Notes: generated by a model not told the origin, from the letters alone. A DNA stretch of 64,000 nt from an uncultured bacterium (GCA_963729625.1 CAVSOU010000011.1:576001-640000), one strand, 5' to 3'; shown: positions 11,857-47,314, counted from the stretch's first letter. Made by a program: numbers and translations.

Positions 11857-12089
11857 ACGCGCAGTCCCAGTACTCCATGGTCATTCAATGGTCTGCCCAG
11901 GATGAGGCCTATGTCGTCAGCTTTCCTGAATGGGAGGCTGCTGGACACATCGCCCACACCCACGGCACCACCTACGAGGAAGCCGTGGGCCGCGGCCGCG
12001 AGGCGCTTGAGTTGCTGATCGAGAGCGCAGCTGATGCCGGTGCTCAGCTACCCCCGCCACGTACGTTCGCGGCCGACAGGGCCGTATAA
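11853..12089 (+). CDS. hicB: Type II antitoxin HicB (short form)
   Basis: YSMVIQWSAQDEAYVVSFPE...THGTTYEEAV...ALELLIE; overlaps the hicA stop (GTGA). Confidence 0.88.
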   Translation: MNAQSQYSMVIQWSAQDEAYVVSFPEWEAAGHIAHTHGTTYEEAVGRGREALELLIESAADAGAQLPPPRTFAADRAV

Positions 12090-12183
12090 TAACCCGAGAT
12101 CAGCCCGGCGTCTGTGGCTCCCAAACCAGGCGCGACGCTGCGGCGCCCCTGCCGGCTGACAGCCAGACCAAGAGCCTCCGGCA

Positions 12184-12726
12184 TCAGATGGGTACGGTCA
12201 GCCTTGCCGTCCCACTGAAATGCCTGCCCGCGACCACGAAATCCATCGCTGCGTTGTACGTGCCAATCATGGTCAGGCGGACCGGTCCCGTGTAGTCGGC
12301 TCCGTGAGACGTCAGCCTGGCGCGCACAGGCGCCATGAGCATGCCCGGCATCGACACCGAGACGTCGATCTGGCGGACGCCGGCGAACAACGAAGATACG
12401 CTAGCTGCCGGGCTCAGTCGAAGGGTGTTCAACCCAGGCAAGCTCGGGCTGAGCGTCCCGCGCAGGCTCACAGCGTGCGCCGCTTCCGCTGCCAGCGTTG
12501 CTGTAACTGCAAGCGTCTGAGGTCGAAGAATGAATCGGGGATCGATCGTCGGAGTGGCGCCGGCCTGCTGCCGGGCAGTGCTCTGGGCGCTTGACTGGGA
12601 AGACACGGCGACGAATCCGGCGATGCCGAGGCACAAGCAACATCACGCCCCCGATGATCAGCGGCCTCAGCCGGCGTGGCGTTAAGCGACGGGAAGGGAC
12701 ACGAGAACGTCGACGCTTGGACACTG
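12184..12726 (-). CDS. Exported YtkA/FixH-like Ig-fold protein; probable frameshift near 12637
   Basis: C-terminal SPSLPGLNTL, VSMPGMLMAPV, YTGPVRLTMIGTY. The signal/TM segment is split between frames (RRLRPLIIGGVML | CLGIAGFVAVS). Confidence 0.5.
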
Positions 12727-12886
12727 AAATCCAGACCCCCATCGGAGCAAGTGGATCGCACCGAAGTAAAGGTTCGCGCGGGCGGACAATCCGGACTGCC
12801 TGCTCCTGGCCGTCATACGATCGCACGTACGCGTCCAGCCCTTCGCCGCACGCGCGATGACCGAGTGCGCCAACAGGCTGAGCGGC

Positions 12887-12927
12887 CGAAGGGGGGCATC
12901 ACGGAGTCGACGGGATGCCCCCCTTCG
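12887..12927. terminator. Inverted repeat downstream of cupredoxin gene
   Basis: CGAAGGGGGGCATC ... GATGCCCCCCTTCG, perfect 14-bp stem; no clear T tract. Confidence 0.55.
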
Positions 12928-12956
12928 CCTTCAGGCGCGCGCGGACACGGAAGGGC

Positions 12957-13931
12957 CTACTGCACGACGGTCACCGTGCCGTCCATGTCAGGATGCATCA
13001 GGCAGTCGTAGGCGAACGTGCCGGCCGCGGTGAACGTCAGCTTGAATGACGGAGGAGCCTTGGAGTTCGGAGGCGCCTCGAAGACCAGGACGCCGGAGTT
13101 GACGAAACCCGTGCCGTCGTAGGTTGGGCCGCCGGCAGGAGTGGTGATTTTGGGGTTCAACATGAGCTTCGGCGGTCCGTTGGGCTGTGGCACCGGCACG
13201 ACCAGATTCTTCTCGATCTGGGTGAGCATGGAGTCGGGACCGAAGGTGACGGTGTGGATAATGCCGATCCACTCCACCGTGTCGCCCACGTGAATGGTGA
13301 GGTGACGGGGATAGAACTGGTCCTCCATCGTCGTATTGGCCTGGTCGTTCCCGGCCAGTTGCCCGTCACCGGCCTGTACGATCCAGGTCTTGCCCATCGG
13401 AGCCGCGGCAGGGTGCACGACGACCGTGCCGTTCATGGCCGGGCCGTGCACGAGGCAGATGTATTGGAAGTTGCCGGCCTTGGTGAAAGTCAGCTTCCAG
13501 GTCTGGCCCGGCTTCGCCATGAATCCCGAATTCGCCAGGCCCGTTCCGTCGTAGGTGTGACCGGCAGTCGGCATCGCAGCTTGTGAGCTGACCTGGATGA
13601 GCGGCGGACCGTTCTTCTGCATGACCGGCACCAGGAAGTCCTGGTTCAGCTTCTTGAGCTCGGCCATCGGTCCGAAGGAGACGGTATGTGGCTCGAGCGA
13701 GTCGTTCATCTTGAAGACCACGGTGTCGCCAACGGTGATGTCGATGTACTTGGGGGAGAAGCCGAGCCACGAGCCGCTGGAGACTCCGGCCTGGCCTGAA
13801 CCCACGAGTACGGTCACCGTCGCCGGCTTCGCGCCGGTCATGGCCTGGGCATGTGACCCGGTCACAGCGTGGAATGGGGCAATACCGGCCAGTATCAGGC
13901 CGGTGACGGCAAGCGCCATTATGCGTTTCAC
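12957..13931 (-). CDS. Secreted two-domain cupredoxin (plastocyanin/azurin-like)
   Basis: Signal peptide; two repeats each with HTV(S/T)FG and a C-terminal type-1 Cu loop (YICLVHGPAMNG; YDCLMHPDMDG). Confidence 0.88.
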   Translation of the reverse strand: MKRIMALAVTGLILAGIAPFHAVTGSHAQAMTGAKPATVTVLVGSGQAGVSSGSWLGFSPKYIDITVGDTVVFKMNDSLEPHTVSFGPMAELKKLNQDFLVPVMQKNGPPLIQVSSQAAMPTAGHTYDGTGLANSGFMAKPGQTWKLTFTKAGNFQYICLVHGPAMNGTVVVHPAAAPMGKTWIVQAGDGQLAGNDQANTTMEDQFYPRHLTIHVGDTVEWIGIIHTVTFGPDSMLTQIEKNLVVPVPQPNGPPKLMLNPKITTPAGGPTYDGTGFVNSGVLVFEAPPNSKAPPSFKLTFTAAGTFAYDCLMHPDMDGTVTVVQ

Positions 13932-14464
13932 TGCGAGCGCACTCCTTACTACTCACATTGTTCGACGATCGAGCATGACGATAAGAAGGCCGCCAAGGCG
14001 GCCGCCCTGCTTCTTCGGGGCACTGCGGCAACCGGCTAGACGACCTTCATGACCCCTGTGTTGCTGAGATTCCTGGATGTTGCGCCGATGACTCCCACCT
14101 CCTCCTGGCTAGTGTCAGACCGTTGAGCCCGCAGGCCTCTAATTCAGTGTAGGCAGCCAAATTCTAAGAAACAAGATTTAGCTGTTTATTATTTGGTATC
14201 GATGCAATTGGGGCTTGCACAGCGGACTGGACAGGGGGAATCCCGCCGCTTTCAGGGCTGAACCTGTCACGCGGCCTGTGTCAGTCTGGTTGATCGCGCC
14301 ATACTCCGGACTGCCCAGGACAGTGATCCGCTCCCAATATGCGCGCCGGCATGCGCGCGGACCTGCCTGGATGGGGTCTTCCAAATGAGCGCGTTGACAC
14401 GATCCGCGCCACAGGTATCACGAGCCCATCGGCTACGACGCCGGCCCTTTCCAGAGCCTGCGCT

Positions 14465-15202
14465 TCAGACGGCGCCGGCTATGACCTGGCGGTCATGAGT
14501 CGCGACGATGCGCTGGCCCGGCTGTACGACGAGGAAGTCGTCGTCCCAGTCACCTGCCAACAGCCGGCGGACGAGCGTCATGTTCCCCACAAGCTGCTCA
14601 AAGCGCCAGCCGTATTTGGCGGCATCCTCCTGAGCCTGAGCGCGATAGCGGCCGTCTGTCTCGGATCCTGTCTCGATGTACGCTGCTCGCTGGTAGTGCT
14701 GTTGCCACCCGCCCATCACTTCCAGCAGATACTGCGCATTGTCCTCGCCGTACTTGGCCACCAGCGCCTCGTAATCGTCCTCAATACCCGTGCCCACACC
14801 CATGCTGATGCGTCTGCCCTTCGCGCTGCTGACGCTCTGGCGTTCGAGGTAGTCGTCCGAGTAGTAATACGTGCCCGGCGTCGCCGAGAACTCGGCGTTG
14901 TAGCGGTCCCGCGAGCCCAGGTAAATGGTGATGCAATCGTGCGCGCGCGGTATCGCGATGGGAATGTCCCGTGCCTGCAGACCTTCCAGGGATCGGTTGC
15001 ATAACCCGAAGGCCAGCACGATGGCCTGGTATGCAGCTGCGTCGACGGCGTCGATCTGGCGCTGCAATTCCGTCCTGAGCACGCGCGCATTGTCATGCAG
15101 GCCCTGGTCGACCAGTTCCACGTCGACTATGTGCGGTGAGCTCGCGGCCTGCAGGTACACCAGGCGCGCAAATACACTGCAGGATAGTACCTTGATACGC
15201 AC
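14465..15202 (-). CDS. DUF1638 family protein (associated with corrinoid systems)
   Basis: LSCSVF, GLHD, FGLCNRSLEG, PRAHDCITIYLGS, PGTYY, YEALVAKYGEDNAQYL motifs; next to the RACo gene. Confidence 0.85.
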   Translation of the reverse strand: MRIKVLSCSVFARLVYLQAASSPHIVDVELVDQGLHDNARVLRTELQRQIDAVDAAAYQAIVLAFGLCNRSLEGLQARDIPIAIPRAHDCITIYLGSRDRYNAEFSATPGTYYYSDDYLERQSVSSAKGRRISMGVGTGIEDDYEALVAKYGEDNAQYLLEVMGGWQQHYQRAAYIETGSETDGRYRAQAQEDAAKYGWRFEQLVGNMTLVRRLLAGDWDDDFLVVQPGQRIVATHDRQVIAGAV

Positions 15203-15316
15203 GGATCATGTCCCCCATTCATCGGCATGCAGCATGGATGATATGTACCGGTAAGAGCAGCCAATTCTACTTCCCGCGGGGAAGTCTCGCCCAAGTCGCT
15301 TGGAGACCTCGACACG

Positions 15317-17173
15317 TCAGTCCTCTCCAGCATGCTCGAAACTCAGGGCTCGCACAAACGCGTCGACGAACTGCGCGTGTGCCGTGAGCTCCACATAGTG
15401 CACTGTTCGGGCCAGGTCTCGTGCTGTCGCTCGCCGCTCCCTCGACAGCAGCAAATGCTGCGCTCCCTGGCCCGCCGCGTTACCCACCTGACGAAACCGC
15501 TCACGCGGCAGGGCCGGCAGCATGCCGACTCGCATGGCGCTGTCCAGATCGAGGTACGTACCAAAGGCGCCGGCCACGATCACGTCCTGCAGCGCCTCGG
15601 AACGTATGTGAGCCGCGTCGAGGAGCAGCTCGGTGCCTGCCCGAATCGCGCCCTTGGCCAGTTGAATCTCGTTCACGTCGGACCGCGTGAGTATGAGATC
15701 GCGATCGTGCCCGGTTCGCGCCGCGGGGACGAGAAGGCAGAAGAACCCGGCCGCTCCTCGGTGCACCAGCGGATGGCTCTTGCTCAACGCGCCGCGAGCA
15801 TCGATGATTCCGGCGTTCAGTCCTTCCGCCACGGCATCCAGAATGCCTGATCCACAGATGCCGACCGGTGGCAGGCCGCCGATGGTGTGCACGAGGAATC
15901 CGCCGTTCTGAAACCGCACGCGCTCGATTGCTCCGGGGACGGCCCGCATCCCGTCGCGAATGTGGGCGCCCTCGAATGCGGGGCCTGAGGCGGTGGAGCA
16001 GCTCCAAAGCCGCCCATCGTGGGCAAGGGTGATCTCCGTGTTGGTGCCGATATCGAGCAGAAGCTTCGTGCGAACGCCTTTGCCGATATCGCTAGCCAGC
16101 AAGGCTGACACATGGTCCGCCCCCACATAACCTGCGATGTTGGGCGGCAGGTACAGCGTGGCGCCAGCCGCCAGCTGAAGCCCCACATCCGAAGCGTGTA
16201 TGTCCAGCGCCGCGGTCACCGTCGCAATGTAGGGCGCCTCGCCCAGCGGTCGCACCGGCAGTCCCACGAAGAGATGGTGCATGGCGGTATTGCCAACCAC
16301 CACCGCGTCGACAATGCTCGCGCGGTCGGCGCCAATCTGGGCGCAGAGCTCCTCGACCAGCTTGTTCACGGTATCGACGATACGCTCGTGCAGCACGCCG
16401 GCAGCGGCAGCCGAGGTGTTCGCATGGGTGATACGGCTGACGACGTCTTCGCCGTATGCGATCTGCGGGTTCATCGCTCCGGCACGGGCCACCGTTTGCC
16501 CCGTGGCGAGATCCACGAGATAACCCGCGACTTTGGTCGTGCCAACATCCACTGCGAGGCCCAGCAATCGTGCCTCGATCGGCAGCACTGCCACGATCTC
16601 GTTTGGCGCACTGGCCCGGTGAACCGCTAGCCGAGCAGACCACTGCTGAGCACGGAGAACGTGCGAACCCTCTTGCAGCGCCGACAAGCTCAGACGCACG
16701 TCCCGCACGCCCGCGGCCTGGACCGCGTCGGCCAGACGCGTGCCATCTGCCCGCAGGTCGTCGAGCGCAGGCTGGGCCAGGACCACGTCAATCCCAAACA
16801 CCGGGGGGTCAAGAGCGACTCCGTCCGACTGCCCCTCGACCTGGAGACGCTGCGTGGTCGACAGTGAGTCGGGTGGAATCTCGATACGCACATCGCTCAA
16901 CACAGCGGCCTGGCAAGCCAGGCGCAAACCAGATCGTATCTCCGGATCGGTGAATAGGTCTTCCTCTATGGGAGTCGGGTCGGACAACATGCCATCGACA
17001 TGGCGGACTCTGCAGGTGCCGCACGTGCCCTGGCCACCGCAGACAGCCACCAACTCCACACCCGAGGCCTGTGCAGCCGCGAGAATGGTGGTCTCCCTGG
17101 GCACGCGCGCTCTACGGCCTACAGGCTGCAGATCCACGCTCACAAAGTCCGTGCCGGCGGGATCAGCCATCAC
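15317..17173 (-). CDS. RACo: ATP-dependent reductive activator of corrinoid proteins ([2Fe-2S] + ASKHA/DUF4445)
   Basis: CGGQGTCGTC...RLACQ ferredoxin, DVGTTKV, NPQIAYGEDVVSRI, DIGTNTE, GPAFEG, GICGSG, QLAKGAI, AGAFG, GNAAGQGA. Confidence 0.93.
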   Translation of the reverse strand: MMADPAGTDFVSVDLQPVGRRARVPRETTILAAAQASGVELVAVCGGQGTCGTCRVRHVDGMLSDPTPIEEDLFTDPEIRSGLRLACQAAVLSDVRIEIPPDSLSTTQRLQVEGQSDGVALDPPVFGIDVVLAQPALDDLRADGTRLADAVQAAGVRDVRLSLSALQEGSHVLRAQQWSARLAVHRASAPNEIVAVLPIEARLLGLAVDVGTTKVAGYLVDLATGQTVARAGAMNPQIAYGEDVVSRITHANTSAAAAGVLHERIVDTVNKLVEELCAQIGADRASIVDAVVVGNTAMHHLFVGLPVRPLGEAPYIATVTAALDIHASDVGLQLAAGATLYLPPNIAGYVGADHVSALLASDIGKGVRTKLLLDIGTNTEITLAHDGRLWSCSTASGPAFEGAHIRDGMRAVPGAIERVRFQNGGFLVHTIGGLPPVGICGSGILDAVAEGLNAGIIDARGALSKSHPLVHRGAAGFFCLLVPAARTGHDRDLILTRSDVNEIQLAKGAIRAGTELLLDAAHIRSEALQDVIVAGAFGTYLDLDSAMRVGMLPALPRERFRQVGNAAGQGAQHLLLSRERRATARDLARTVHYVELTAHAQFVDAFVRALSFEHAGED

Positions 17174-17242
17174 GTGCCATCCACCGGCTCACCGCTCAGC
17201 CGGGGCGTCACGCGTTCGAGCGAACTCATCAGTGCCTCCGTG

Positions 17243-18475
17243 CTACGACCGATATGCGCCGACGGCCGGCATCATGGCACTACTCCCAGGCCCGAAATAC
17301 CGCAGCAGGACGAGCGGTTCGTGGCCGGTGTTCGCAACCGTGAAGCCGGCGCGTGCGCGCTCATTGCTGACAAAGAATTCGTCCCAGGTATCCTCGCCGT
17401 AGCGCGTGGAGGTGAGCGCTTCCACGGCAAATGGCCCGACGGTCCCGTGTCCCTGGATGACGATCACGCCGCTCGCCCCGGTATCACGCAAGGTTACTGA
17501 CGCTCCCGCCTGAACGCGCAGCTCGCGTGCCGAGAAGAGATCCTGTCCCTCGATCAGGCCATAGATCACCCAGCAATCCTCGAAGCCATCCCTGCCGGTG
17601 TCGCCGATGGTAATGGGTTCGAGGTAGTGGTGTTGCTTGAACGCCGGGTCGAGATTCGCGCTCCAGTCGATCATGCTGACCAGGAAGTCCAGGTCGCGGT
17701 GCTTCTCCGGCGACACGCTTTTGACCAGCGAGCTCCACGGGTTCACACGCCCGTCGACCAGGGATTGGAACTCCGCGCTCACATCCGAGCCCCACTGTAC
17801 CTCGTAGGTGCACAGCGAACCCGGGGCATGCATGATGCCCGGAGGAATGATCCAGCCCGTGCCGGGCCTCAAGCGGTAGGCTCGCGACAGATCCAGGATG
17901 CCGTTGTCACCCTGGTCCCAGCGCTCGAGGCAACGGTAGATATCCTTCTCCGTCGTGCCCGATTCCAGCCCGAAGAACGTGTACGGAAACAAGTTGGTGG
18001 CAGCGTTCAGCTGTGTGGGAAAGTAATAGGCTTCCGGTTTCTGTTGCTGCCCGACGAGGCTGGCGTGCTCCTGCTTCTGGTGCAGATGCAGGGGGATCGC
18101 GCCCAGGTTGTCGAAGAACTTGCAGAGCGCCGGCCAGCGACCCCAGGCGGCCATCATGTCCTTGCCGATCAGCGCTGCACCTGCCGCGGAGACGGCTTCG
18201 CGCAACAGGAAGCGCCGAGCGTCGACGCCGACCACGTGGCTCAAACCCTCCTCCGCCGGCGTATTCGGTCCGTTGTCTGCCTCGGTCGTCGAGGCAATCC
18301 AGCGCTCGTTGATGCCGCCACGTGATGCGCCGAGCGCATAGAGGTCCTGCTCGGCCAGGCGCAGCCGTCTCCCAGGGATCATGCCGACCCGCGGTACCCA
18401 CGTGGGCGCCAGGTGGAGGATGCCGTCGCCGGCTTCCAGTGCGTCCTCGACACACCGCGAGATGTTTGGCTCCAT
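17243..18475 (-). CDS. Cupin protein related to type I phosphomannose isomerase (putative sugar-phosphate isomerase)
   Basis: KFFDNLGAIPLHLHQ, KPEAYY, PPGIMHAPG and YEVQWGSD parallel the PMI metal-binding motifs. Confidence 0.7.
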   Translation of the reverse strand: MEPNISRCVEDALEAGDGILHLAPTWVPRVGMIPGRRLRLAEQDLYALGASRGGINERWIASTTEADNGPNTPAEEGLSHVVGVDARRFLLREAVSAAGAALIGKDMMAAWGRWPALCKFFDNLGAIPLHLHQKQEHASLVGQQQKPEAYYFPTQLNAATNLFPYTFFGLESGTTEKDIYRCLERWDQGDNGILDLSRAYRLRPGTGWIIPPGIMHAPGSLCTYEVQWGSDVSAEFQSLVDGRVNPWSSLVKSVSPEKHRDLDFLVSMIDWSANLDPAFKQHHYLEPITIGDTGRDGFEDCWVIYGLIEGQDLFSARELRVQAGASVTLRDTGASGVIVIQGHGTVGPFAVEALTSTRYGEDTWDEFFVSNERARAGFTVANTGHEPLVLLRYFGPGSSAMMPAVGAYRS

Positions 18476-18493
18476 TGCGGCCCTCCTTCTCCG

Positions 18494-19438
18494 TCAGCCG
18501 CGCTCGGGACCGACCGGCGCTGCGCCCGCCCCTACGGCGGTGCTGTACACGTCGATGGCTCGGCAATATTGGTCGGCAATCTGACGCGCCGCTGCCGGCC
18601 GGTCAAGCGATCCGGCCAGGTAGCCCTTGATAGCCTCCCACCAGAGTGTCCGGCCGATGGCGAACCCGATATAGCCCGGAACACCCGCCGCCTGCCGCAG
18701 CCAGTGCTCTACACGTGGCTGATCCGCCGCGCGGCCGAGTACGACGCACCCCACGTGCGCACGTCCCTCGCCCCGAATTGCGGCCGCCACGCGCGCGCAA
18801 TCCGCGCGCTGCTCGAGGCCTTCTATTTTCCAGACATCGGTCTCCACGCCCGCCTCCTGGAGCGCATCGATCATCCGCAGCGTCAACGCCGGCCGCACTT
18901 CGGCGTCAAAGCGAAAGGCGTCACCGCCAACTGTTGCCAGCTGCGGAGCGGTGGGCGGGATGACCACCTCAAGAAGCAGCTTGCGATCGTGATCGTGCAG
19001 CCAGTCCGCCAGAAGCCGGAGACGAGAGGCCTGGCGCGCGTTGAGGGCCGCATCCCCGTCCGGATTGTAGCGCACGAGGACCTTGGCGAAGGGTGTCCCC
19101 ACCGCGGCTAGATGCTCGCCGAATTCGTCTCCGTACGCGAACTCCAACTCCGCTCCCCCGCTCTTCTCCACGCAAACCGCGGAGATCTCACCCGCGGCCA
19201 CTGCTCGCTTCGCGATACCGATGCCAAACTGCTCGTCCACCAGAATGCCGGCCTCATCCTTCGAGACACCCCGCGCCAGCGCGAGGTGGAACCCGTCGTA
19301 GATGACCTCTTTCGCGTCGAGCATGCGTGCGCTAACGTCAGGCGTGGCCTCGCCCGTGCTGTTGAGAAGTCCTTTCTGCAGCGTCCCGCGATGGTCGAAC
19401 GCAAGAATATACAGCGGACGGTCGTACCCAAGGGTCAT
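18494..19438 (-). CDS. DUF2090 class I aldolase (IolC-associated / LacD-like)
   Basis: LYILAFDHR, GILVDEQFG, KVLVRYNP, LLLEV, DVWKIEG, CVVLGR, GFAIGRTLW. Confidence 0.85.
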   Translation of the reverse strand: MTLGYDRPLYILAFDHRGTLQKGLLNSTGEATPDVSARMLDAKEVIYDGFHLALARGVSKDEAGILVDEQFGIGIAKRAVAAGEISAVCVEKSGGAELEFAYGDEFGEHLAAVGTPFAKVLVRYNPDGDAALNARQASRLRLLADWLHDHDRKLLLEVVIPPTAPQLATVGGDAFRFDAEVRPALTLRMIDALQEAGVETDVWKIEGLEQRADCARVAAAIRGEGRAHVGCVVLGRAADQPRVEHWLRQAAGVPGYIGFAIGRTLWWEAIKGYLAGSLDRPAAARQIADQYCRAIDVYSTAVGAGAAPVGPERG

Positions 19439-19502
19439 GAACTCGTTCTCCTACTCAACTACGTGCCATGGATGCGCTCTGTTCCGACTCGACCAGCCGC
19501 AC

Positions 19503-20033
19503 TCATGCCTCTACCAGTCCGCGCAGGTACGCAATGCACTGCGCCACACAGTCGGCGAAAGGTGCCTCGGTGTCGACGACCAGCCGCTCCTCCTGCAGTG
19601 GTTCAAGGTTTGCCTTGAGCCGCAAATACAACTCGAAATTCCGATTTCCGGCCGGGTGCCGCGCATCGCTTTCGTCCTGATCCAGCCGTAGTCTCGCGGA
19701 CTGCTCAGAGCAGACACACTCTATGAAACGCAGCGGTAGCGCATGTTTCGTAGCGAACGACACGACGTCCTGGCGCTGATAGCGCCAGATAAACGGCCGG
19801 CCGTCGAGAATGATGCGCTTCTCTGGATCCTTGGCAGACAAGTAGCCTGCTACCTGGAGCATGATCGACAGGCAGAAATCGTCCTGGGGCGTCGAATACT
19901 CGATCTCGCCCGGTGGGAACAAAGCAGCACGGATCGCGTCTTTGTCAAGCAGGACGGCCGGCAGTTGTTTGGCCAGCTCGCGCCCCAGCGCGCTCTTCCC
20001 GGCTCCCGGCAGTCCTGCCATCGCAATGAGCAT
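19503..20033 (-). CDS. P-loop small-molecule kinase (AAA_33, gluconate-kinase-like)
   Basis: Walker A AGLPGAGKS, LLDKDAIRAALF, IILDG, lid region RLRL. Confidence 0.78.
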   Translation of the reverse strand: MLIAMAGLPGAGKSALGRELAKQLPAVLLDKDAIRAALFPPGEIEYSTPQDDFCLSIMLQVAGYLSAKDPEKRIILDGRPFIWRYQRQDVVSFATKHALPLRFIECVCSEQSARLRLDQDESDARHPAGNRNFELYLRLKANLEPLQEERLVVDTEAPFADCVAQCIAYLRGLVEA

Positions 20034-20110
20034 GTCCGTCTTCTCCCGCTATCGGGTTGGCTTGGCGCTGATTCCGCCTACCGGACCGTCAGCTCGCCTG
20101 TCTCGCCGGT

Positions 20111-21079
20111 TCACTTGCGTATCTCCCGCCCTGCCGGGTTGCGCGCGTCAAGAAAGGCCTCGACGTCCGAACGGCCCGGTATCCCCGCCTGGCCGCCGGG
20201 GCGCGTAGCCTTCAGCGCGGCGGCAGCCGAGGCGAAGTGAATTCGGTCGCCCACGGGCGCGCCGCGGGCCAACGCCGAAGCATAGGCGCCGTGAAAGACA
20301 TCGCCGCACCCGGTCGTGTCCACGGCGCTCACGGGGTATGCCGGCACATGTTCAACATGAGGATACAGGGCACGCGACGTATACCAGCAGCCGTCGACGC
20401 CGCAGGTTACGACGACCACGTCGCACGCGTCGGCCCACAGAGCGGAAACCGCGCGGCTGGGGTCGGATTCGCCTGTGAGCTTCTCGGCATAGTCACGTGA
20501 CACAATGAGATGGTTCACCAGCGCTTGCAGAGCCGGCAATCCGGAGGCGACCACGTCGCCCTCGAAATCGGCGACCACGGGGATACCCGCGTCTCGCGCG
20601 ATCGTTGCCGCGCCGACCATCCCTTCCAGGCCATACGGATCGACGAAGAGCACCCGCGACGAACGGACAGCCTCAGCCACATGGGTCGCGTCTGGAGCGC
20701 CGAGGGCGCCGGCCGGATCAAAGAACAGGGTGCGCGTCGCGCGCCCGATCTCCACGATGACGGTCGAGTGGATTGGCCGCGCGTCTGTCAAGCGCACCAA
20801 GCGCGTGAGATCGATGCCTTCCGCGGCCAGCCTCGCGACGACGAACGACGACAGATCGTCATAGCCCAGGATGCCCGCATACATGCAGCGAGAGCCGAGT
20901 CGGGCAGCGGCCACCAACGCGGTTGCCGTCAGCCCGCCACAGTGCCGCTCCTGACGTTGCACCCGTATCTTCGAATCGACAGGCGGATATGCCTCGACGT
21001 AGAGCAGGTCGTCGACCGCAGCGGAGCCCAGACCAAGCACATCGATCATGCCATCGGGCGAAAGAGAGATGTCAGTCAT
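20111..21079 (-). CDS. PfkB/ribokinase-family carbohydrate kinase
   Basis: GGLTATALVAAARLG, VVVTCGVDG, VDTTGCGDVFHGAY anion-hole motif. Confidence 0.92.
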   Translation of the reverse strand: MTDISLSPDGMIDVLGLGSAAVDDLLYVEAYPPVDSKIRVQRQERHCGGLTATALVAAARLGSRCMYAGILGYDDLSSFVVARLAAEGIDLTRLVRLTDARPIHSTVIVEIGRATRTLFFDPAGALGAPDATHVAEAVRSSRVLFVDPYGLEGMVGAATIARDAGIPVVADFEGDVVASGLPALQALVNHLIVSRDYAEKLTGESDPSRAVSALWADACDVVVVTCGVDGCWYTSRALYPHVEHVPAYPVSAVDTTGCGDVFHGAYASALARGAPVGDRIHFASAAAALKATRPGGQAGIPGRSDVEAFLDARNPAGREIRK

Positions 21080-21109
21080 GATGTGTGTCCCACGACGTAC
21101 TGAGTTCTG

Positions 21110-22537
21110 TCATCCCAATTTCCCCGGATAGCGCTGGTTGAGGGCAATGACCAACGCAGCCAGGCCCCGGCGGCGTGCCGTCTCCGCGAAGCGCGTCACA
21201 TAGCTTTCCAGCGGTGCCACCGAGACTTCGCCTGTGCGATGCAGGTCGATGGCCTGCAGCATCGCCTCGGCGCCAAGCTGCGAATCGGGATGGCCCTCGG
21301 CATTCCTGATCGAGTTAATGGCCGATCCGGCCAGGAAGAGAACGCTCTCGGCCAGACCGTGCTCTTCGGCGTCAGCCAGGTTCGGTCCGATATTGCCCTG
21401 GTCGAGAGCGCCTGCACGGGCCACCATGGTCGGCCGAATCCCGGGCACCGCGTGCGTAAGCGCATGCTCGGAGGCCCGCCATTCGGCGCCATAGGGGCGG
21501 ATGTACGGCGCACCCGGGCGCACCGGCGCCGTCTGGCGGAGATCGATGCCGTCCAGACGCGCCAGGTAATCTATTATCTCGCGCCACATGCCGCGGGTCT
21601 TGACGCAGATACCGGCGTTGTGCCCGTAGATGACCGGCGGGTGCTCCATGTGCCGCGTGGCGTCACGGACCATGCGCACGGTTCCACCCGCGAAGGATTC
21701 GCTGAACATCACGCCGGTGGCCCCCGCGGCGCATACCGCGTGTACCGTCTCCAGAATCTCGTGGGGCGCGCCGGTGATATGAGGCGCGAAGATCAGCCCG
21801 TGACCACCCCTGGCGTCCCGTGTTCGCTCGATGGCCGCGACGGCACGTCGCGTCCGTTCCGCCACCGGGGAGTATGGAAGATCGGGATAAAGGTTCTCAT
21901 CTTCCTTGACGAAGATGAAGAGCGGACAGGCGGCAACATCGTCCATCAGGGCCCCGACGTCCTCGGCCGTAATCCCCGCGGTCGGCTTGAGGATGGTGCC
22001 AAAGGCCGGCTGTTCGGGCGCTATACCGGTCAGTTTGCGGATGCCCCCTGGACCGTATGCCGGGCCGGGGAAGCTGGAGAGGACCTGCTGCGGGATCTGC
22101 AACCCGACCAGGCGAGCGTCCATGTGCTCGTAGAAATCGAAAATGACGGCGTTGCAGACCGTGTGCAGCACGTCAACAGAGGTGAGATGACCATCGGGGT
22201 GCAGCAGCATCTTGAGCGGAAACGCCATGTGCACGACGCCAATGCGCCCGCTGGGGTCGAATGCATCGATGCCGACCCCGCGCCCGGTGCACTGCTCCAA
22301 CAGCGAGCCCGGTGGCACATGCCGCGTGCCGCTGGTCGCGTGGTAGCTGATCTCCGGAACGGCCTCGGCGAGCGTTATCGACCGCAAAGCGAAGAAATAG
22401 GTCGCTACGATCGCATCGTCCAGCTTGGGCGCGGGCTGAGCGTCCAGGCTCGCCTGCACAACCTGCCGAAGCTGGGACTCGGAAGCGTCGAAATCGTGTG
22501 ACAGTGCCTCGATCGTCTGTGTGTTCAGCGATGTCAC
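21110..22537 (-). CDS. RuBisCO-like protein (form IV RLP)
   Basis: FPGPAYGPGGIRKL, GTILKPTAG, FVKEDENL (KDDE-like), GHNAG, LARLDGID. No small subunit gene, and several RuBisCO catalytic residues are substituted. Confidence 0.9.
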   Translation of the reverse strand: MTSLNTQTIEALSHDFDASESQLRQVVQASLDAQPAPKLDDAIVATYFFALRSITLAEAVPEISYHATSGTRHVPPGSLLEQCTGRGVGIDAFDPSGRIGVVHMAFPLKMLLHPDGHLTSVDVLHTVCNAVIFDFYEHMDARLVGLQIPQQVLSSFPGPAYGPGGIRKLTGIAPEQPAFGTILKPTAGITAEDVGALMDDVAACPLFIFVKEDENLYPDLPYSPVAERTRRAVAAIERTRDARGGHGLIFAPHITGAPHEILETVHAVCAAGATGVMFSESFAGGTVRMVRDATRHMEHPPVIYGHNAGICVKTRGMWREIIDYLARLDGIDLRQTAPVRPGAPYIRPYGAEWRASEHALTHAVPGIRPTMVARAGALDQGNIGPNLADAEEHGLAESVLFLAGSAINSIRNAEGHPDSQLGAEAMLQAIDLHRTGEVSVAPLESYVTRFAETARRRGLAALVIALNQRYPGKLG

Positions 22538-22609
22538 TCTGTCCCTCTTTTCTCTGTCAACAATGTGCTGGCTGCCTCACACACCGGGCATCCTTGTTCC
22601 CGAGACACG

Positions 22610-22640
22610 ATTCATGAAACGGAAGCTTGTATTCATGAAA
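22610..22640. promoter_or_regulatory. Tandem palindromic operator upstream of the RLP gene
   Basis: ATTCATGAAA occurs twice; palindromic cores TTCATGAA at 22611-22618 and 22632-22639 are 21 bp apart in an AT-richer intergenic stretch. Confidence 0.6.
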
Positions 22641-22696
22641 ATACCGGCATAACCACCTATTGCCCCGCCAACGAGAATGTCGGCTCCGCGGGCATG

Positions 22697-23329
22697 TCAT
22701 GCGGCGAGCACCTGGCGTGCCACCCGCACCGCACTGGAAGCATCCGTCGCGTAGCCGTCCGCCCCAATCTCATCCGCGTAGGCCTTGGTGATCGGCGCCC
22801 CACCTACCAGAATCCGCACCTGCCCCCGCAGCCCCGCCGCCTCAATCGCCGCGATGATCACCTTCATGTTCGTCATCGTGGTCGTCAGCAACGCCGACAT
22901 CGCCACCACGTTGGCCCCGTCGTGGATGGCTTGCACGAACTTCTCCGGCGCCACGTCCACCCCCAGGTCCATAATCTCAAAGCCCGAGCCTTCCAGCATC
23001 ATGGCGACCAGGTTCTTGCCAATGTCGTGCAAGTCCCCCTGCACCGTGCCGATGGCCACTTTGCCGCTCGATGCCACCCCTTCCTCCACCAGGTGCGGCT
23101 TGAGCACCGCCAACGCCCCGCTCATGGCCCGTGCGGCCACCAGCATCTCGGGCACGAAGACTTCTCCCTCTTCGTACAACTGGCCGACCTTGGCCATGGC
23201 CGCGATCAGCCCCTCGCGCAGCAGCGTGCCTGCATCGATGCCCTCGGCCAGTCCCTGCGTGACCTTGGCCACGGCGACCTTCGCCTGTCCCTCGACGACC
23301 GCCTCACGTAGCTCCTCGAGTACTGCCAT
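22697..23329 (-). CDS. Methyltransferase corrinoid protein (MtbC/MttC-like, B12-binding)
   Basis: Cap domain (GLIAAMAKVGQLYEEGEVFVPEML) plus GTVQGDLHDIGKNLV (DxHxxG), SALLTTT, VGGAP. Confidence 0.95.
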   Translation of the reverse strand: MAVLEELREAVVEGQAKVAVAKVTQGLAEGIDAGTLLREGLIAAMAKVGQLYEEGEVFVPEMLVAARAMSGALAVLKPHLVEEGVASSGKVAIGTVQGDLHDIGKNLVAMMLEGSGFEIMDLGVDVAPEKFVQAIHDGANVVAMSALLTTTMTNMKVIIAAIEAAGLRGQVRILVGGAPITKAYADEIGADGYATDASSAVRVARQVLAA

Positions 23330-23521
23330 GATGTTTCAACTCCACCTTCTACGCTTCATAATCCCGATCCGATAGGAACGGCCACAAGCAGCCGCGACCA
23401 TCTCACGATCGCCAAATGCCTGAGGACCGTTCCTGGTTCGAAGTATATTGTAGTCACCGCCGCCTCACTTCCTCCAGTTTCTCCACCTGCTGTCGTGACG
23501 AGGAATCCGCGCACATGCTGG

Positions 23522-24301
23522 TCACGTTCCGTCCGCCAGCACCAGCACGCACTGGCGACGCGGATGCGTCGTCACATAGATCGGAGTTCGGTAGATCTCC
23601 GAGAGCAGGGGCGCGGTGAGTGTCTCGGCGGGCGATCCCACCGCCGCCAGACGGCCGTGGTGCATGAGGGCAATGTCGTCCGCATAGGCCGAAGCAAGGT
23701 TGAGGTCATGCAGGATCACCAGGATCGCTTTGCCGTGCTCGGCCAGCTTGCGGCTCAAACGCATCACCAGTTCCTGGTGCCCGATGTCCAGGCTTGCCGT
23801 GGGCTCGTCGAGCAGCAACACGCCAGTCTCCTGAGCCAGGGCGCGGGCCAGCAACGTACGCGAGGCCTCGCCGCCGGAGAGCGTCGGATAGGCGCGCGCT
23901 CGGAACGGCTCCATTTCCGTGCTTGCCAGTGCCTGCCGGACGATCCGCCGATCTTCAACGGGCGAGATATCGCGGCGGGCAGCATGGGGATAGCGCCCCA
24001 TGCCCACCACATGCTCTACCTGGAAGGCGAAATAGATCAGCGCGTGCTGGGTCATTACAGCCCGCAGGCGCGCCAAATGGAGCGCGGAGTACGACCGTAG
24101 CGGACGACCCTCGAGCAGAATCTTTCCCGCGGTCGGCTGCAAATCGCCGGCCAGCAGGCGGAGCAGTGTCGATTTGCCGGCGCCGTTCGGCCCTACAAGC
24201 GCCAGGACACGGCCGGGCGTGAGCGAGAGGCTCACGTCACTGACCAGCGGGCTCGGCCCCGCGTGATAGGTGACGTGGTCGGCAGCCAATGCTGGCATCA
24301 T
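23522..24301 (-). CDS. hmuV: Heme/cobalamin-type ABC transporter ATP-binding subunit
   Basis: GPNGAGKST, YPTLSGGE, LLLDEPTASLD, ILHDLNLASAYAD. Confidence 0.8.
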   Translation of the reverse strand: MMPALAADHVTYHAGPSPLVSDVSLSLTPGRVLALVGPNGAGKSTLLRLLAGDLQPTAGKILLEGRPLRSYSALHLARLRAVMTQHALIYFAFQVEHVVGMGRYPHAARRDISPVEDRRIVRQALASTEMEPFRARAYPTLSGGEASRTLLARALAQETGVLLLDEPTASLDIGHQELVMRLSRKLAEHGKAILVILHDLNLASAYADDIALMHHGRLAAVGSPAETLTAPLLSEIYRTPIYVTTHPRRQCVLVLADGT

Positions 24302-25398
24302 ATCCGGCGACCGCTGAGTGTGCTCTTGTGACGGACGAGCCAGAGGAAATAGGGACAGCCGGCCAGTGCGGTCAGCGATCCAACCGGTATCTCCGCGGGC
24401 GAGGCAATGGTGCGTGCCAGCACATCGGCGAGCACCACCAGCAGCGCCCCGACCAATGCGCTCGCTGGTAGAACTACGGCATGGTCGGGCCCCAGCAGCA
24501 TGCGCATGAGGTGCGGGACAAGCAATCCGACGAACCCCACGATACCGACAACGGCCACTGCGGTCGCCGTGAGCAGCGAGGTGGCAGCAAGGAGGATGAG
24601 CCGTGACCGCGCCACGTGGACGCCGAGGTAGTACGCGTCACGATCGCCGAGAGAAAGGAGATCCAGTGCCCGTGTCCAGCGCGACAAGAAGAGTATGCCA
24701 ATCAAGGCAAGTGGCGCCGCGACAGCCACGTCATTCCAGACTGCCCCGCTCAGACTGCCGAGCTCCCAGAACGATACGCTGTTGAGCGCGGCGTTGTTTG
24801 TAGCGGCGATGAGCAGCCCAACCGCCCCGGCGACGATTGCGTTGACCGCAATGCCGGCAAGCACCATGGTCAGCATGTCGGCCTGGCCATCGTGGACCGC
24901 CAGCATGTAGACGATGCCGGTTGCCGCCAGACTGCCGCAGGCAGCCGCCGGCAACATAGCCACCAGGCCAAGGCTTGATCCGCCGATCCACAGCATCAGC
25001 ACAGTGCCCAGAGAGGCGCCGGCCGAGCTGCCAAGCACCGCGGGATCTGCCAGGGGATTGCGCAGGAGACCCTGCAGCGTCGCCCCGGATAGGCCCAGAC
25101 AACAGCCGACTAACGCGCCGAGCAGCACCCGCGGCAGGCGAAGGGACCACAGCACGCCGTCCTGAATGCCATCGGGTGAGGCGATGCCCGGCCACCCCGC
25201 GTGGCGCAGAAGAATGCCGGCAACCTGAGGCACGCTGATCGCCACATCTCCTATGCAGAGGCTCAGGAGCATTGCGAACAGCAGGGCGGCAACCAGCGCA
25301 ATGAATGTGAGCCAACGCCTTGACGTCGAGACCGCGCTGTGCGGTGGGTCCAGGCGTTGGCTCATCTCTCCCGCGTCGTCGCCGGCCAATGCGGGCAC
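24298..25398 (-). CDS. hmuU: FecCD/BtuC-family ABC permease
   Basis: LRLPRVLL, LRNPLADP, LGDRDAYYLGV, GFVGLLVPH, EIPVGSLTALAG. Confidence 0.8.
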   Translation of the reverse strand: MPALAGDDAGEMSQRLDPPHSAVSTSRRWLTFIALVAALLFAMLLSLCIGDVAISVPQVAGILLRHAGWPGIASPDGIQDGVLWSLRLPRVLLGALVGCCLGLSGATLQGLLRNPLADPAVLGSSAGASLGTVLMLWIGGSSLGLVAMLPAAACGSLAATGIVYMLAVHDGQADMLTMVLAGIAVNAIVAGAVGLLIAATNNAALNSVSFWELGSLSGAVWNDVAVAAPLALIGILFLSRWTRALDLLSLGDRDAYYLGVHVARSRLILLAATSLLTATAVAVVGIVGFVGLLVPHLMRMLLGPDHAVVLPASALVGALLVVLADVLARTIASPAEIPVGSLTALAGCPYFLWLVRHKSTLSGRRI

Positions 25399-26402
25399 TA
25401 CTTCAACTCGGGATGCAGTCCATGGACCAGCTGGGCGAGAGCCTGGCCGGTTCGCGGGCCCATGTTGCCCAGGAAGTCATCCTCATAAATGAGCACGCGA
25501 TGTGCGCGACCGGCCGGAGTCAGAGAGACCCCCGGCAATTTGAGCAGCCCCGCCATGCCGCCGACAGAAGCGGCACCGGACTTGAAGACCAGCAGGATGT
25601 CGGGACGGGCCTTCACGAGCGCTTCGGGGGTGAGAGGGACGTAGCCGAAGATGCCGGATGCGCCGGCGGAATCCACGCCGCCGGCGGCGGTAATCAGCGT
25701 GCTAAAGCTGCTGCCCTTTCCCGCGATCAGGTACGTGTTGGCCTGCGCTTGCACGAGCATGAACACGACGCGCGGCCTGCTCGTGGCCCGTTTGGCGAGG
25801 GCTTCCGCGGCGGCGATCTGGGCGCCGACCACTTTGTCCAATCGCTGTCCCGCCGCGACAACGCCGAGTGCCGCTGCCACCTCGGCTATGCGCCCTTGCA
25901 CTGCCTGTATCAGGTTGCCGGTGATCGTCGTATCGCCTGACTTGATGATCACGACTCGCACGCCGGAGCTGCGCAACTGGGAGATCACGGACGGTGGTCC
26001 GGCGTCGGGAGTGCCGATGATTATGGAGGGCTTGAGCGCAAGAATAGGCTCTGCCGTGAGCTGGCGCTGATAGCCGATGTTGTGGAGCCGCGCCGCCGCG
26101 GCCGGGTAGGTCGCGCTGAGATCGGTACCCACCACGTCGTTGCCCAGGCCAAGTGCCCAGATGATTTCCGCCACATCCCCATTCAGAGCTACGATGCGCA
26201 TTGGGCTCGGCGCCACCGCGACAGCATCACTGTGGGACGCGTGGGCCGCGGGCGCGGGGTTATATATGGGGGCGGCAGCGCCAAGAGCCAGCAGCACCAG
26301 GAGCGTGCCGATAGCACTTGCCCGTCCGACGCCGCCCAACTTCGAGAAGCGCCGCGGCGTCTTTGCGATAGGGGACGGCACGCCAGAAATGGAGTAGTGC
26401 AT
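25398..26402 (-). CDS. hmuT: Heme-type class III substrate-binding protein
   Basis: RIVALNGDVAEIIWALG, IGYQRQLTAEPILALKP (Tyr at the heme-ligand position of HmuT/PhuT/ShuT), MGPRTG; ATG after GGAGG. Confidence 0.75.
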   Translation of the reverse strand: MHYSISGVPSPIAKTPRRFSKLGGVGRASAIGTLLVLLALGAAAPIYNPAPAAHASHSDAVAVAPSPMRIVALNGDVAEIIWALGLGNDVVGTDLSATYPAAAARLHNIGYQRQLTAEPILALKPSIIIGTPDAGPPSVISQLRSSGVRVVIIKSGDTTITGNLIQAVQGRIAEVAAALGVVAAGQRLDKVVGAQIAAAEALAKRATSRPRVVFMLVQAQANTYLIAGKGSSFSTLITAAGGVDSAGASGIFGYVPLTPEALVKARPDILLVFKSGAASVGGMAGLLKLPGVSLTPAGRAHRVLIYEDDFLGNMGPRTGQALAQLVHGLHPELK

Positions 26403-26450
26403 GTGTTCCTCCTTTGCCATTCACGAGCCCTCACTCAGCTTCGACAACTC

Positions 26451-26477
26451 GAAATGCGAAGCCTGATTCCTCATTTC
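26451..26477. promoter_or_regulatory. Imperfect inverted repeat, candidate metal-regulator operator
   Basis: GAAATGCGAA-GCCTGA-TTCCTCATTTC just downstream of a minus-strand TTGACA, upstream of the ABC operon. Confidence 0.35.
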
Positions 26478-26704
26478 ACATGGCGCCTGTCAACTCGAGG
26501 GCTACACGTATCGTATCCTGTCAGGGGGTCTGCGTGACGCGTCCGCCCGTGGAGACATTGTCCCGATGACTGAAGTGCTACTCCAGAGCAGACAGTCCCC
26601 GCCCGTGAGAAAATGAGCACGTCCGCACTCGTTGTCGGTCCGAACTCACGATGGACCGGTGACGAACGGTTGAGGCGCGAATCTGTTTTTCGTGGAGCGT
26701 AGAG

Positions 26705-27709: not shown

Positions 27710-27844
27710 CTGCGTGGCCCATCAGCTGCATGCGGCAGACCCGCGTGGCTATGCGATAACCGGCGAATGGGCTCGCTACCAGGTTCCATCGACCCGGCGC
27801 CTCGCTGATGGGTTCCCTGCGCTGCGGCGAGCCATCGGCGCTGC

Positions 27845-28321
27845 TCACACTTGCCTGGGAACCTTGCCCGTCAGCGTGCACACGAACCGGAAGGCTTTGT
27901 GAAAAGAGTCCGCGGCGGGATCAAACATCAAGGGACAGCCTCCGTCGATTACCGTTATGCCCTGGCTGCGGCCGTACTCGGTCGCTGCCGCGGAGAAGCT
28001 GCCGGCTCCGAAAGCGCGATGCATCCATACGTGCTTGATGCCCAGCGCGGCGCACTCGCGCATCGTGCTTTCCGCCGTGGCGGGCCTGGTTCCGATCACG
28101 ACCGCATCCACTCCGCCGGGGATCGCGCTGAGGTCTCGATAGCAGTCGTCACCTTCGACTTTATCCGCGTTCGGATTGACGGCAAAGACCGTGTAGCCAC
28201 GCGCTCGGAGGCGCTGATACACTGCGTTACTGCCGTGGCCTTTCGGGTTCCTGGATACCCCGGTCACCGCGATACGCTTCTTCGCCAGGAATTCCGCCGC
28301 GGCCATCTTTACGCTCGCCAT
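27845..28321 (-). CDS. CoA-binding protein (YccU-like)
   Basis: KRIAVTGVSRNP, VFAVNP, DAVVIGT, VWMH, DGGCPLM. Confidence 0.88.
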   Translation of the reverse strand: MASVKMAAAEFLAKKRIAVTGVSRNPKGHGSNAVYQRLRARGYTVFAVNPNADKVEGDDCYRDLSAIPGGVDAVVIGTRPATAESTMRECAALGIKHVWMHRAFGAGSFSAAATEYGRSQGITVIDGGCPLMFDPAADSFHKAFRFVCTLTGKVPRQV

Positions 28322-28361
28322 AGCTTACTCCTCGCTGCATTTGCCGGCACCACGACCAATT

Positions 28362-28393
28362 ATAGATGACGACGTGAATAGATGACGACGTGA
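28362..28393. repeat. Exact 16-bp tandem duplication
   Basis: ATAGATGACGACGTGA x2 in the divergent promoter region. Confidence 0.9.
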
Positions 28394-47270: not shown

Positions 47271-47314
47271 AAAGCCGCGACACGCGTTCGCGCCCGTGCT
47301 GGGGGACAATTCCG

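Follow-up and report, generated by a model that had tools for sequence, protein, structure and literature searches.

The 64-kb window analysed here, the whole stretch of DNA under study (C11:576001-640000 of the genome G000), carries a run of co-oriented genes in which a sugar-phosphate cassette with a RuBisCO-like protein (RLP) lies between genes for corrinoid-dependent methyl transfer. Comparisons of gene context suggest, with a probability of roughly 0.55 to 0.6, that this lineage couples its corrinoid network functionally to carbohydrate catabolism. The module of the RLP and a phosphomannose isomerase (PMI)-like protein is repeatedly found with corrinoid parts in different arrangements, with a carrier and an activase in G000 and with a methyltransferase in its sister genome G001, and many methyltransferase-like genes of the URO-D family lie in carbohydrate loci of G000. 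The assembly (5.4 Mb, 21 contigs, 87% complete) belongs to a soil or sediment bacterium, which we place in the Chloroflexota on account of its relatives and because the closest RLP locus with a name is labelled Anaerolineaceae.

The genes of the run, in window coordinates and in order of transcription, are:

25398..26420 (-), periplasmic substrate-binding protein of a FecCD/BtuCDF-type ATP-binding cassette (ABC) importer (Peripla_BP_2, 4.8e-28)
24298..25398 (-), FecCD/BtuC-type permease (FecCD, 8.7e-90)
23522..24301 (-), importer ABC ATPase (ABC_tran, 3.3e-30)
22697..23329 (-), small corrinoid methyl-carrier protein, 210 amino acids (aa) (B12-binding_2, 3.2e-19; B12-binding, 3.4e-26)
21110..22537 (-), form-IV RLP, 475 aa (PF00016, 1.8e-9, 37.8 bits, cut-off 30.1)
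20111..21079 (-), PfkB-family sugar or keto-acid kinase (PfkB, 2.6e-40)
19503..20033 (-), AAA_33 P-loop small-molecule kinase (AAA_33, 1.5e-15; Walker A GLPGAGKS)
18494..19438 (-), DUF2090 class-I-aldolase-like protein (DUF2090, 1.3e-31)
17243..18475 (-), type-I-PMI-like metal cupin, 410 aa, of an uncatalogued family (Foldseek match)
15317..17173 (-), RACo-type ATP-dependent reductive activase (Fer2, RACo_linker, Raco_middle, RACo_C_ter)
14465..15202 (-), DUF1638 protein (DUF1638, 3e-37; one match in the genome)

The eight genes from the carrier to DUF1638 were found on the minus strand in the order, at the coordinates and under the names given by a first-pass annotation of this DNA, and domain matches, motifs and fold bore out all eight family assignments. 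The importer was missing from that description; it is co-oriented and directly upstream of the carrier, with a gap of 192 nt. From the carrier onwards the intergenic gaps are 159, 30, 77, 64, 18, 69 and 114 nt, and DUF1638 is followed by a 533-nt gap and a cupredoxin gene. Because the gaps along the run are short, a single transcription unit is plausible, and the run is probably one operon of two interleaved systems, with its genes predicted to be co-transcribed. RACo, DUF1638, the RLP, DUF2090 and AAA_33 are each single-copy in the assembly. No cobalamin riboswitch or any other Rfam family was detected in 12000-29000 at E <= 0.1, and the consensus scan for promoters and terminators gave counts not above those of shuffles, with no above-chance terminator within the run. 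Composition gave no sign of a foreign insertion, since GC (0.63-0.66) and GC at third codon positions (0.71-0.85) resemble the flanks.

Methyl-transfer genes beside RLP and carbohydrate genes

Comparisons covered G001, which belongs to the same genus and shares syntenic blocks of about 75% nucleotide identity with G000, three further genomes of the genus (G002-G004, 83-92% complete), and 31 other RLP loci (12 on genome contigs, 16 in metagenomes, plus those of G001, G007 and G298), among which L008 equals L033, L002, L024 and L036 are near-identical, and eleven are shorter than 7 kb, with many contigs below 4 kb. Linkage of the RLP with URO-D-like genes, which had been proposed for testing, was found to recur. 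In G001, genes for the RLP (83% identity), the PMI-like protein (75%), an MtaA/URO-D-like protein and a 455-aa protein follow one another in this order on one strand, with gaps of about 95, 39 and 132 nt. At the locus of an Anaerolineaceae metagenome-assembled genome (MAG; L013, RLP 64% identical), three URO-D-family genes are located upstream of an operon encoding a uronate-isomerase-like protein, a cupin, a Mannitol_dh-family protein and the RLP. In one Verrucomicrobiota lineage (L002, L024 and L036), the RLP and a 70-nt spacer are followed by an open fragment that corresponds to only the final 60-70 residues of an MtaA-like protein, with GPGC among them; this fragment (L002:11490-11669) is 43% identical to the full-length form of L013 and looks like a gene remnant. 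The genome G337, from another Chloroflexota family, carries a co-oriented cluster (L073:3317-16554) of two MalK genes, a class-II fructose-bisphosphate aldolase, an FGGY kinase, GH4, a PMI-like homologue (35%), AP_endonuc_2, a zinc alcohol dehydrogenase, a second AP_endonuc_2, a 238-aa protein, a carrier (44%) and a URO-D-like gene, and the contig ends 170 nt beyond it.

The uronate-isomerase-like protein of L013 (L013:4064-5422) and its G000 homologue (L108:5589-6995) are 452-468 aa long and have no Pfam match at 1e-5; the protein matches PDB 4i6v at 2e-21 and the Bacillus halodurans uronate isomerase at 5e-7, and it lies beside URO-D-like genes in both genomes. The 455-aa protein that ends the G001 operon (L016:7669-9036) has no Pfam or PDB sequence match; it shows an N-terminal H-x-H and a C-terminal TEHN motif and may be a metal hydrolase. 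Its homologue in G000 (C9, L117:10938-12242) is three called genes (about 3.5 kb) from another URO-D-like gene.

G000 holds 44 URO-D-family matches, about 40 of them divergent MtaA-like paralogues, against only two carriers and one activase; the count of 44 may be one or two too high, as identical Pfam scores indicate that one locus was probably assembled twice. The two copies, both at contig ends (C7:1-10000 and C2:1-10000; L116 and L123), contain seemingly the same URO-D-like and ABC permease genes. With curated NCBIfam (equivalog) cut-offs as the membership criterion here and below, all 15 URO-D-like proteins submitted scored higher with MtaA, CmuA or methylcobalamin:coenzyme M models than with HemE, and all stayed below the cut-offs. 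At the MtaA zinc site, whose motif we take to be H-x-C...C, the histidine is present in 27 of 28 aligned proteins, with H-x-C in 20 and H-x-D in 6, and as third ligand the full-length proteins have Cys and 13 divergent proteins have His. The URO-D expansion coincides in G000 (44 matches) and G001 (36 matches) with the presence of carriers, RACo, DUF1638 and the RLP; each of G002-G004 has 2 URO-D matches, and all three lack a small carrier protein, RACo, DUF1638 and the RLP. This profile across five related genomes supports that the URO-D paralogues depend on corrinoids. RACo and DUF1638 are either both present or both absent in the genus.

These methyltransferase-like genes were frequently located among carbohydrate genes. 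By a manual reading of Pfam tables, 29 of the 44 matches are no more than two called genes away from a gene for a sugar transporter, a glycoside hydrolase, a sugar kinase, an isomerase or a sugar-acid dehydratase; the reading assigned 6 of the remainder to the same sugar-acid island or cluster, leaving 9 without any. For the marker test we used 47 carbohydrate marker proteins taken from outside the URO-D neighbourhoods, which mark 198 G000 genes. A marker was present within 3 kb of 20/44 URO-D matches versus 756/5000 random sites, an approximately threefold difference, and within 5 kb of 28/44 versus 1067/5000. An 88-kb sugar and sugar-acid island (C10:1104001-1192000, L041-L045) contains 11 URO-D-family matches along with MR_MLE, 2-Hacid_dh, DHDPS, short-chain dehydrogenase/reductase (SDR), GntR/FCD, PfkB, FGGY, Dak and a glycyl-radical enzyme, and a locus with fucosidase and sugar ABC transporter genes (C8:1-20000, L107) contains five more.

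The carriers show similar surroundings. The second G000 carrier (C10:939054-939683, 85% identical to the first) is located among URO-D-like genes and genes for a GntR regulator, a sugar ABC transporter, an MR_MLE dehydratase and an SDR. One of the three G001 carriers (about 83%) follows two URO-D-family genes, the one at L058 is beside a URO-D-like gene with GH4 about 1.3 kb away, and the third precedes a sugar ABC transporter, with PfkB and 2-keto-3-deoxy-6-phosphogluconate aldolase genes nearby. The L058 carrier (L058:9601-10231) aligns in two overlapping frames, from a frameshift or an assembly error. DUF1638 was detected in 63/401 Chloroflexota genomes overall versus 5/7 of those with a PMI-like homologue, and in 5/9 of the RLP-bearing genomes checked.

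Proteins of the run and their relatives

The RLP matches 45 PDB sequences of RuBisCOs or RLPs at E <= 1e-3. It retains K184, the K211-x-D213-E214 metal site and H306 (by alignment to 8dht and 1geh), which are equivalents of K175, K201, D203, E204 and H294 in spinach, where we take the catalytic set to be K175, K177, K201, D203, E204, H294, R295, H327, K334 and S379. Three of these sites are substituted (K177 to T186, R295 to N307, H327 to Q335), the loop-6 lysine (K334) is gone, and the RuBisCO SGG/GGG motifs read AGA/GSA; the incomplete active-site residues rule out a bona fide RuBisCO of forms I-III and CO2 fixation. Scores of 65.5 for OiaX (cut-off 700), 49.4 and 27.7 for MtnW (409 and 513.6) and 75.1 for type III (497) put the protein, which is of form IV by its catalytic domain, its metal site and an incomplete RuBP-binding set, outside every characterised subfamily, whether MtnW/YkrW enolase or OiaX decarboxylase. 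The OiaX model (NF042437) is its second-best NCBIfam match, at 3.8e-18; OiaX/OiaC is the 3-oxo-isoapionate-4-phosphate decarboxylase of D-apionate pathways. Among 8000 candidates scored, 1633 relatives were found at E <= 0.001, the best being 64-75% identical, and the few named ones belong to Planctomycetota and Verrucomicrobiota. The clade is rare per species, with 4/401 Chloroflexota genomes and, in the phylum of an Isosphaeraceae MAG, 1/331, which is the centre genome itself.

Pfam scans of RLP neighbourhoods, covering the 67 of 136 called open reading frames nearest the RLP plus further scans, revealed three usual contexts: the RLP with GFO_IDH_MocA, AP_endonuc_2, an alpha/beta hydrolase and ribulose-phosphate 3-epimerase (Rpe); the RLP after a small cupin and a Mannitol_dh-family reductase, to which GH28, a rhamnosidase or an SSF transporter is sometimes added; and E1_dh/transketolase plus SIS. 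The recurrent Rpe, GFO-type dehydrogenase, uronate-isomerase-like, Mannitol_dh and AAA_33 partners and the weak similarity to OiaX hint at an acid-sugar route; the RLP may decarboxylate or isomerise a keto-sugar phosphate in it.

Among the cassette partners, the PfkB protein carries DTTGCGD (DTxGxGD) at residue 254 and scores 116 bits with a ribokinase-like model, under its cut-off. AAA_33 has weak NCBIfam matches that include a gluconokinase model (E 0.0078), and on the metagenome contig L021 its homologue (59% identity) is directly upstream of a 76%-identical RLP. DUF2090 weakly matches the aldolase half of an IolC-aldolase fusion and tagatose-bisphosphate aldolase; an IolC/IolJ-type pair of 5-dehydro-2-deoxygluconate kinase and aldolase was rejected on its scores (iolC_N 76.5, cut-off 300; myo_kin_aldol 54.9, cut-off 600). 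The 410-aa protein has no Pfam or NCBIfam match, and a PDB sequence search returned nothing below E 0.27. Its AlphaFold model (predicted local distance difference test 77.7, predicted template modelling score 0.80) is matched in Foldseek by the type-I PMIs 1zx5, 3h1m, 1qwr and 1pmi at 1e-16 to 1e-12, with 12-17% sequence identity to PDB PMIs, and an HxH..E..H set (H130, H132, E148, H216) is invariant in 8/8 aligned sequences, the protein and seven homologues. The earlier label of PMI-like cupin is thus upheld at the level of the predicted fold. G000 also has an intact paralogue (C17:36967-38142, 51% identity) ahead of a sugar ABC transporter and a third copy (C10:1250193-1250868) interrupted by stop codons.

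Among the corrinoid-support genes, the carrier has the B12-binding cap, Rossmann domain and DxHxxG motif (DLHDIG at residue 99) of corrinoid carriers, and resembles MtgC and MtbC below both cut-offs (MtgC 213 versus 370). RACo is the sole full-length tblastn match in G000, possesses all four domains of such activases, and scores 425.8 bits with the AcsV model, under the cut-off of 800. Adjacent and both single-copy, RACo and DUF1638 form a RamA-like/DUF1638 pair. In Phaeobacter inhibens, methionine synthesis by a three-part B12 methionine synthase requires both a RamA-like ferredoxin-DUF4445 protein and one with DUF1638, and the two families have nearly identical phyletic patterns, the function of DUF1638 being unassigned there (Price et al., bioRxiv 10.1101/192971). 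RamA and DUF1638 were more abundant on N-osmolytes, along with the carrier MtgC (PMC12478193). The ligand of the importer could be B12, haem or a siderophore: the best NCBIfam match of the permease is BtuC (255.9 bits, under the cut-off of 461), the substrate-binding protein reaches 36 bits with BtuF, under the cut-off, and the ATPase passes a haem ABC ATPase model (295 bits, cut-off 261) and scores 257 with a corrinoid ATPase model (below 537).

Elsewhere in the window, 28390-30978 (+) encodes an 862-aa fusion of a LacI-type periplasmic sugar-binding domain (Peripla_BP_3/1) with HisKA and HATPase_c; it is 2 kb away from the importer genes and could be a histidine kinase that senses sugars. 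A fructan-type cluster at 44729-54064 (+) contains SBP_bac_1, two BPD_transp_1 permeases, an aldo-keto reductase, GFO_IDH_MocA, DUF2961 and GH32, and DDE transposases are located at 54464-55699 and 60763-61926.

Proposed coupling and competing explanations

Under the proposed coupling, the B12-type importer, carrier, RACo and DUF1638 would be the shared machinery of a corrinoid methyl-transfer network, whose substrate-specific methyltransferases would be among the 44 URO-D-family matches scattered through the carbohydrate loci of G000. An MtaA-like enzyme would move the methyl group of an O-methylated sugar (of the methyl-uronate or methyl-hexose type) to Co(I) on the carrier, and a full-length MtaA-like enzyme would hand it from the carrier to an acceptor. 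In the second system, the two kinases would phosphorylate a sugar or acid-sugar substrate, the PMI-like cupin would interconvert aldose and ketose, the RLP would perform enolate chemistry on the keto-sugar phosphate, by isomerisation or OiaX-type beta-keto-acid decarboxylation, and the DUF2090 aldolase would cleave the product of the RLP step. The demethylated sugar would feed routes such as this cassette, and co-regulation would be the reason for the two systems sitting together. The cassette reactions, the methyl donor and the methyl acceptor are predictions from sequence and gene context.

The separate parts of this proposal differ in strength. That the methyl donor is an O-methylated sugar, with the RLP cassette as one downstream route, is a tentative suggestion, somewhat short of an even chance, and the same tentative standing applies to co-regulation of a B12-dependent methyl-removal system with methylated-carbohydrate catabolism. 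Unlikely as a whole is the most specific version, in which the RLP-PMI module, kinases, aldolase, MtaA-like enzymes and carrier/RACo/DUF1638 would make up a pathway that degrades an O-methylated (acid) sugar, for example a methyl-uronate, independently of oxygen, with a zinc MtaA-like protein as the first known corrinoid-dependent enzyme to cleave an aliphatic sugar methyl ether and with a new RLP reaction. The first-pass annotation had read the run as catabolism of a methylated sugar or methylthio-sugar with B12-dependent demethylation. The methylated-sugar idea survives as a live hypothesis from gene context. The run is not a self-contained demethylation pathway, because the genes called in the 64-kb window include no URO-D, MTTB, MtaB or pterin-binding gene, and the co-encoded methyltransferases of a three-component corrinoid system are therefore lacking there.

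Besides this absence, several observations weigh against coupling. As one RACo-DUF1638 pair has to serve all pathways, its position can hardly be specific to the RLP cassette. The customary RLP neighbourhoods (the GFO_IDH_MocA set; cupin with Mannitol_dh) contain no corrinoid genes, and DUF1638 was not found in the RLP-bearing genomes G007, G298, G401 and G402. A chance insertion was to be recognised by homologous RLP loci free of corrinoid genes and by relatives in which the corrinoid protein and RACo are adjacent. The first was found, since carrier, RACo and DUF1638 were detected by tblastn (E <= 1e-5) in 0/31 other RLP loci, and the second largely so: among 29 Chloroflexota DUF1638 loci outside the window (1.5-kb flanks), a carrier is adjacent at 8, RACo at 6 and a URO-D-like gene at 2, with at least one of these at 15/29. 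In G001 the run of the window is absent and its parts lie at seven separate loci with rearranged flanks. The AAA_33 (54%), DUF2090 (65%) and PfkB (59%) trio is apart from the RLP in another order and orientation, RACo (68%) is alone between a luciferase-like gene and an amidase gene, and DUF1638 (84%) is behind a Melibiase/GH31-like gene. The G000 orthologue of the RLP-adjacent methyltransferase of G001 (C11:555424-556545) is separated from the RLP by about 40 kb. Because URO-D-like genes are numerous and clustered, neither the adjacency counts nor the marker test consist of independent trials. Finally, we know of no biochemical precedent for a corrinoid system that demethylates an aliphatic sugar methyl ether, and our literature search found nothing that links corrinoids with methylated sugars.

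The blocks on either side of the 12-kb RLP segment of G001 directly follow one another in G000, immediately to the left of the window, and the flanks of the G001 trio adjoin each other in G000 at C11:~149 kb. Translocation as a single block was rejected, as the trio differs in order and orientation and is only 54-65% identical. The run is a species-specific assembly of at least five units.

Chance juxtaposition, in which fluid gene order put a sugar cassette between B12 housekeeping genes so that the two sets are independent and any read-through is functionally meaningless, is somewhat unlikely. Its case draws on the arrangement having been seen only in G000, on the seven dispersed loci of G001, on the ordinary place of DUF1638 beside a carrier, RACo or URO-D-like gene, on the lack of a methyltransferase in the window, and on a selection effect, as the window was chosen for its unusual look. 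It is opposed by the adjacency of RLP and MtaA-like genes, which recurs independently in three other lineages, by the G337 sugar operon that unites a PMI-like homologue, a carrier and a URO-D-like gene, by the short gaps at both junctions (159 and 69 nt), and by the approximately threefold enrichment of URO-D-like genes near carbohydrate markers. If the link is merely positional, the window is a clear case of fluid gene order mimicking a pathway.

It is quite improbable that the substrates are aryl methyl ethers of plant phenolic glycosides or lignin-carbohydrate fragments, with the sugar genes, including the RLP cassette, consuming the freed sugar. OdmB and VdmB, phenolic O-demethylases of the URO-D superfamily that work with a carrier and an ATP-dependent activase, provide a precedent (PMC10418091), and URO-D-like genes of G000 lie beside fucosidase, GH38, arabinofuranosidase and sugar ABC transporter genes. 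However, no aromatic ring-cleavage or aglycone-handling genes were found in about 300 neighbouring proteins scanned, many URO-D-like genes are within sugar-acid operons without a hydrolase, and the RLP-linked loci hold uronate-isomerase-like and Mannitol_dh genes.

The RLP of Rhodospirillum rubrum is a 5-methylthioribulose-1-phosphate isomerase that works with a cupin methylsulfurylase, a small cupin. A corresponding methylthio-sugar route, in which the RLP and cupin would act on a methylthio-pentulose phosphate as in the R. rubrum methylthioadenosine-isoprenoid shunt and the methyl group of methanethiol would pass to an MtsA/MtaA-like protein and the carrier, is very unlikely here. The RLP-cupin pairing is recurrent, MtaA-family models are the best matches of the URO-D-like genes, and the reference list of PMC10418091 includes papers on the RLP and the methylsulfurylase of R. 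rubrum, in a context of corrinoids and methyl-sulfur compounds. Against this, the MtnW score is 49 bits versus a cut-off of 409, window scans showed no MtnK-, MtnA- or MtnP-type genes nearby, the RLP contexts are those of glycan and uronate catabolism, and the cupin here has a 410-aa PMI-type fold.

Least probable of all is that carrier, RACo and DUF1638 are unrelated to sugars and belong, as their counterparts in Phaeobacter and Ruegeria do, to a glycine-betaine demethylase or to a cobalamin-dependent methionine synthase that is split: RamA-like and DUF1638 proteins are needed for B12 reactivation with the three-part methionine synthase (bioRxiv 10.1101/192971), both are more abundant with MtgC on N-osmolytes (PMC12478193) and MtgC models are the best NCBIfam matches of the carrier, but the carrier stays under the MtgC cut-off, the window has no homocysteine methyltransferase or pterin-binding gene, a 1153-aa open frame (C7:401604-403001) with B12-binding and Pterin_bind matches is probably a full-length MetH, and no MTTB/MtgB member was found in the 87%-complete genome, on which ground the glycine-betaine (MtgBC) reading was rejected. 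Pterin_bind occurs in G000 only in this frame and in one other, of 345 aa.

Many sugars of plants, algae and microbes are kept from catabolism by their methyl ethers, and the only sugar-demethylation route that the literature search found, within the text it covered, needs oxygen and a cytochrome P450. A B12-based route of the kind proposed would, if true, explain the use of methylated sugars in anoxic soils and sediments and the role of large MtaA-like families in non-methanogens. The window and the sister locus also supply a concrete set of partner enzymes for an RLP clade without an assigned reaction.

Comparison with known systems

Like the OiaX/OiaC systems, G000 has a form-IV RLP in a sugar-acid context of kinases and dehydrogenases; it differs in the RLP score (65.5 versus 700) and in the partners, which are PfkB, AAA_33, DUF2090 and the PMI-like protein, with no DUF1537-type kinase seen. 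The R. rubrum system likewise pairs an RLP with a cupin, and there a methyl-heteroatom group leaves the sugar. Here, by contrast, the RLP is below the MtnW cut-off, the cupin is a 410-aa PMI-type protein, and the loci are of glycan and uronate type. The known oxidative demethylation of 6-O-methyl-D-galactose by a cytochrome P450, a prerequisite for its catabolism, is oxygen-dependent and involves no corrinoid (PMC6292453).

In type 1 mlp clusters, mostly of Firmicutes, Mlp2 and Mlp3 lie beside a carrier and are proposed to handle methyl-sulfur or methyl-selenium compounds (Kountz and Balskus, PMC10418091). These clusters share MtaA-like proteins, a corrinoid protein and a RACE-type activase with the system described here, and they have no folate methyltransferase. 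Membership of the run in such a cluster was ruled out, as the window has no Mlp or URO-D-family gene.

The three-component O-demethylases of acetogens and Desulfitobacterium consist of methyltransferase I (OdmB or VdmB), a corrinoid protein, methyltransferase II and an ATP-dependent activase (PMC10418091). G000 resembles them in its small DxHxxG carrier, its RACo/RamA-type activase and its candidate methyltransferases of the URO-D superfamily. It differs in that the operon contains no methyltransferase, five sugar genes lie between carrier and activase, and there are only two carriers and one activase for about 40 methyltransferase paralogues; the O-demethylases are known to act on aromatic methyl ethers, not on sugars. 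The RamA-like (DUF4445)/DUF1638 pair of Phaeobacter inhibens and Ruegeria pomeroyi belongs to families that co-occur across genomes, and here the two are adjacent and co-oriented. Those bacteria use the pair for a split methionine synthase or for the MtgC-dependent demethylation of glycine betaine (bioRxiv 10.1101/192971; PMC12478193), whereas G000 lacks MTTB and apparently has a full-length MetH.

A literature search of main articles found no paper linking RLPs with uronates and, among the matches listed and as judged from titles and the openings of abstracts, no pathway joining RLPs with corrinoid genes. Corrinoid carriers with an activase and sugar operons with an RLP are both known kinds of system, one for each half of the run; what the window adds is the physical union of the RLP cassette with corrinoid genes, and the adjacency of RLP genes to MtaA-like genes.

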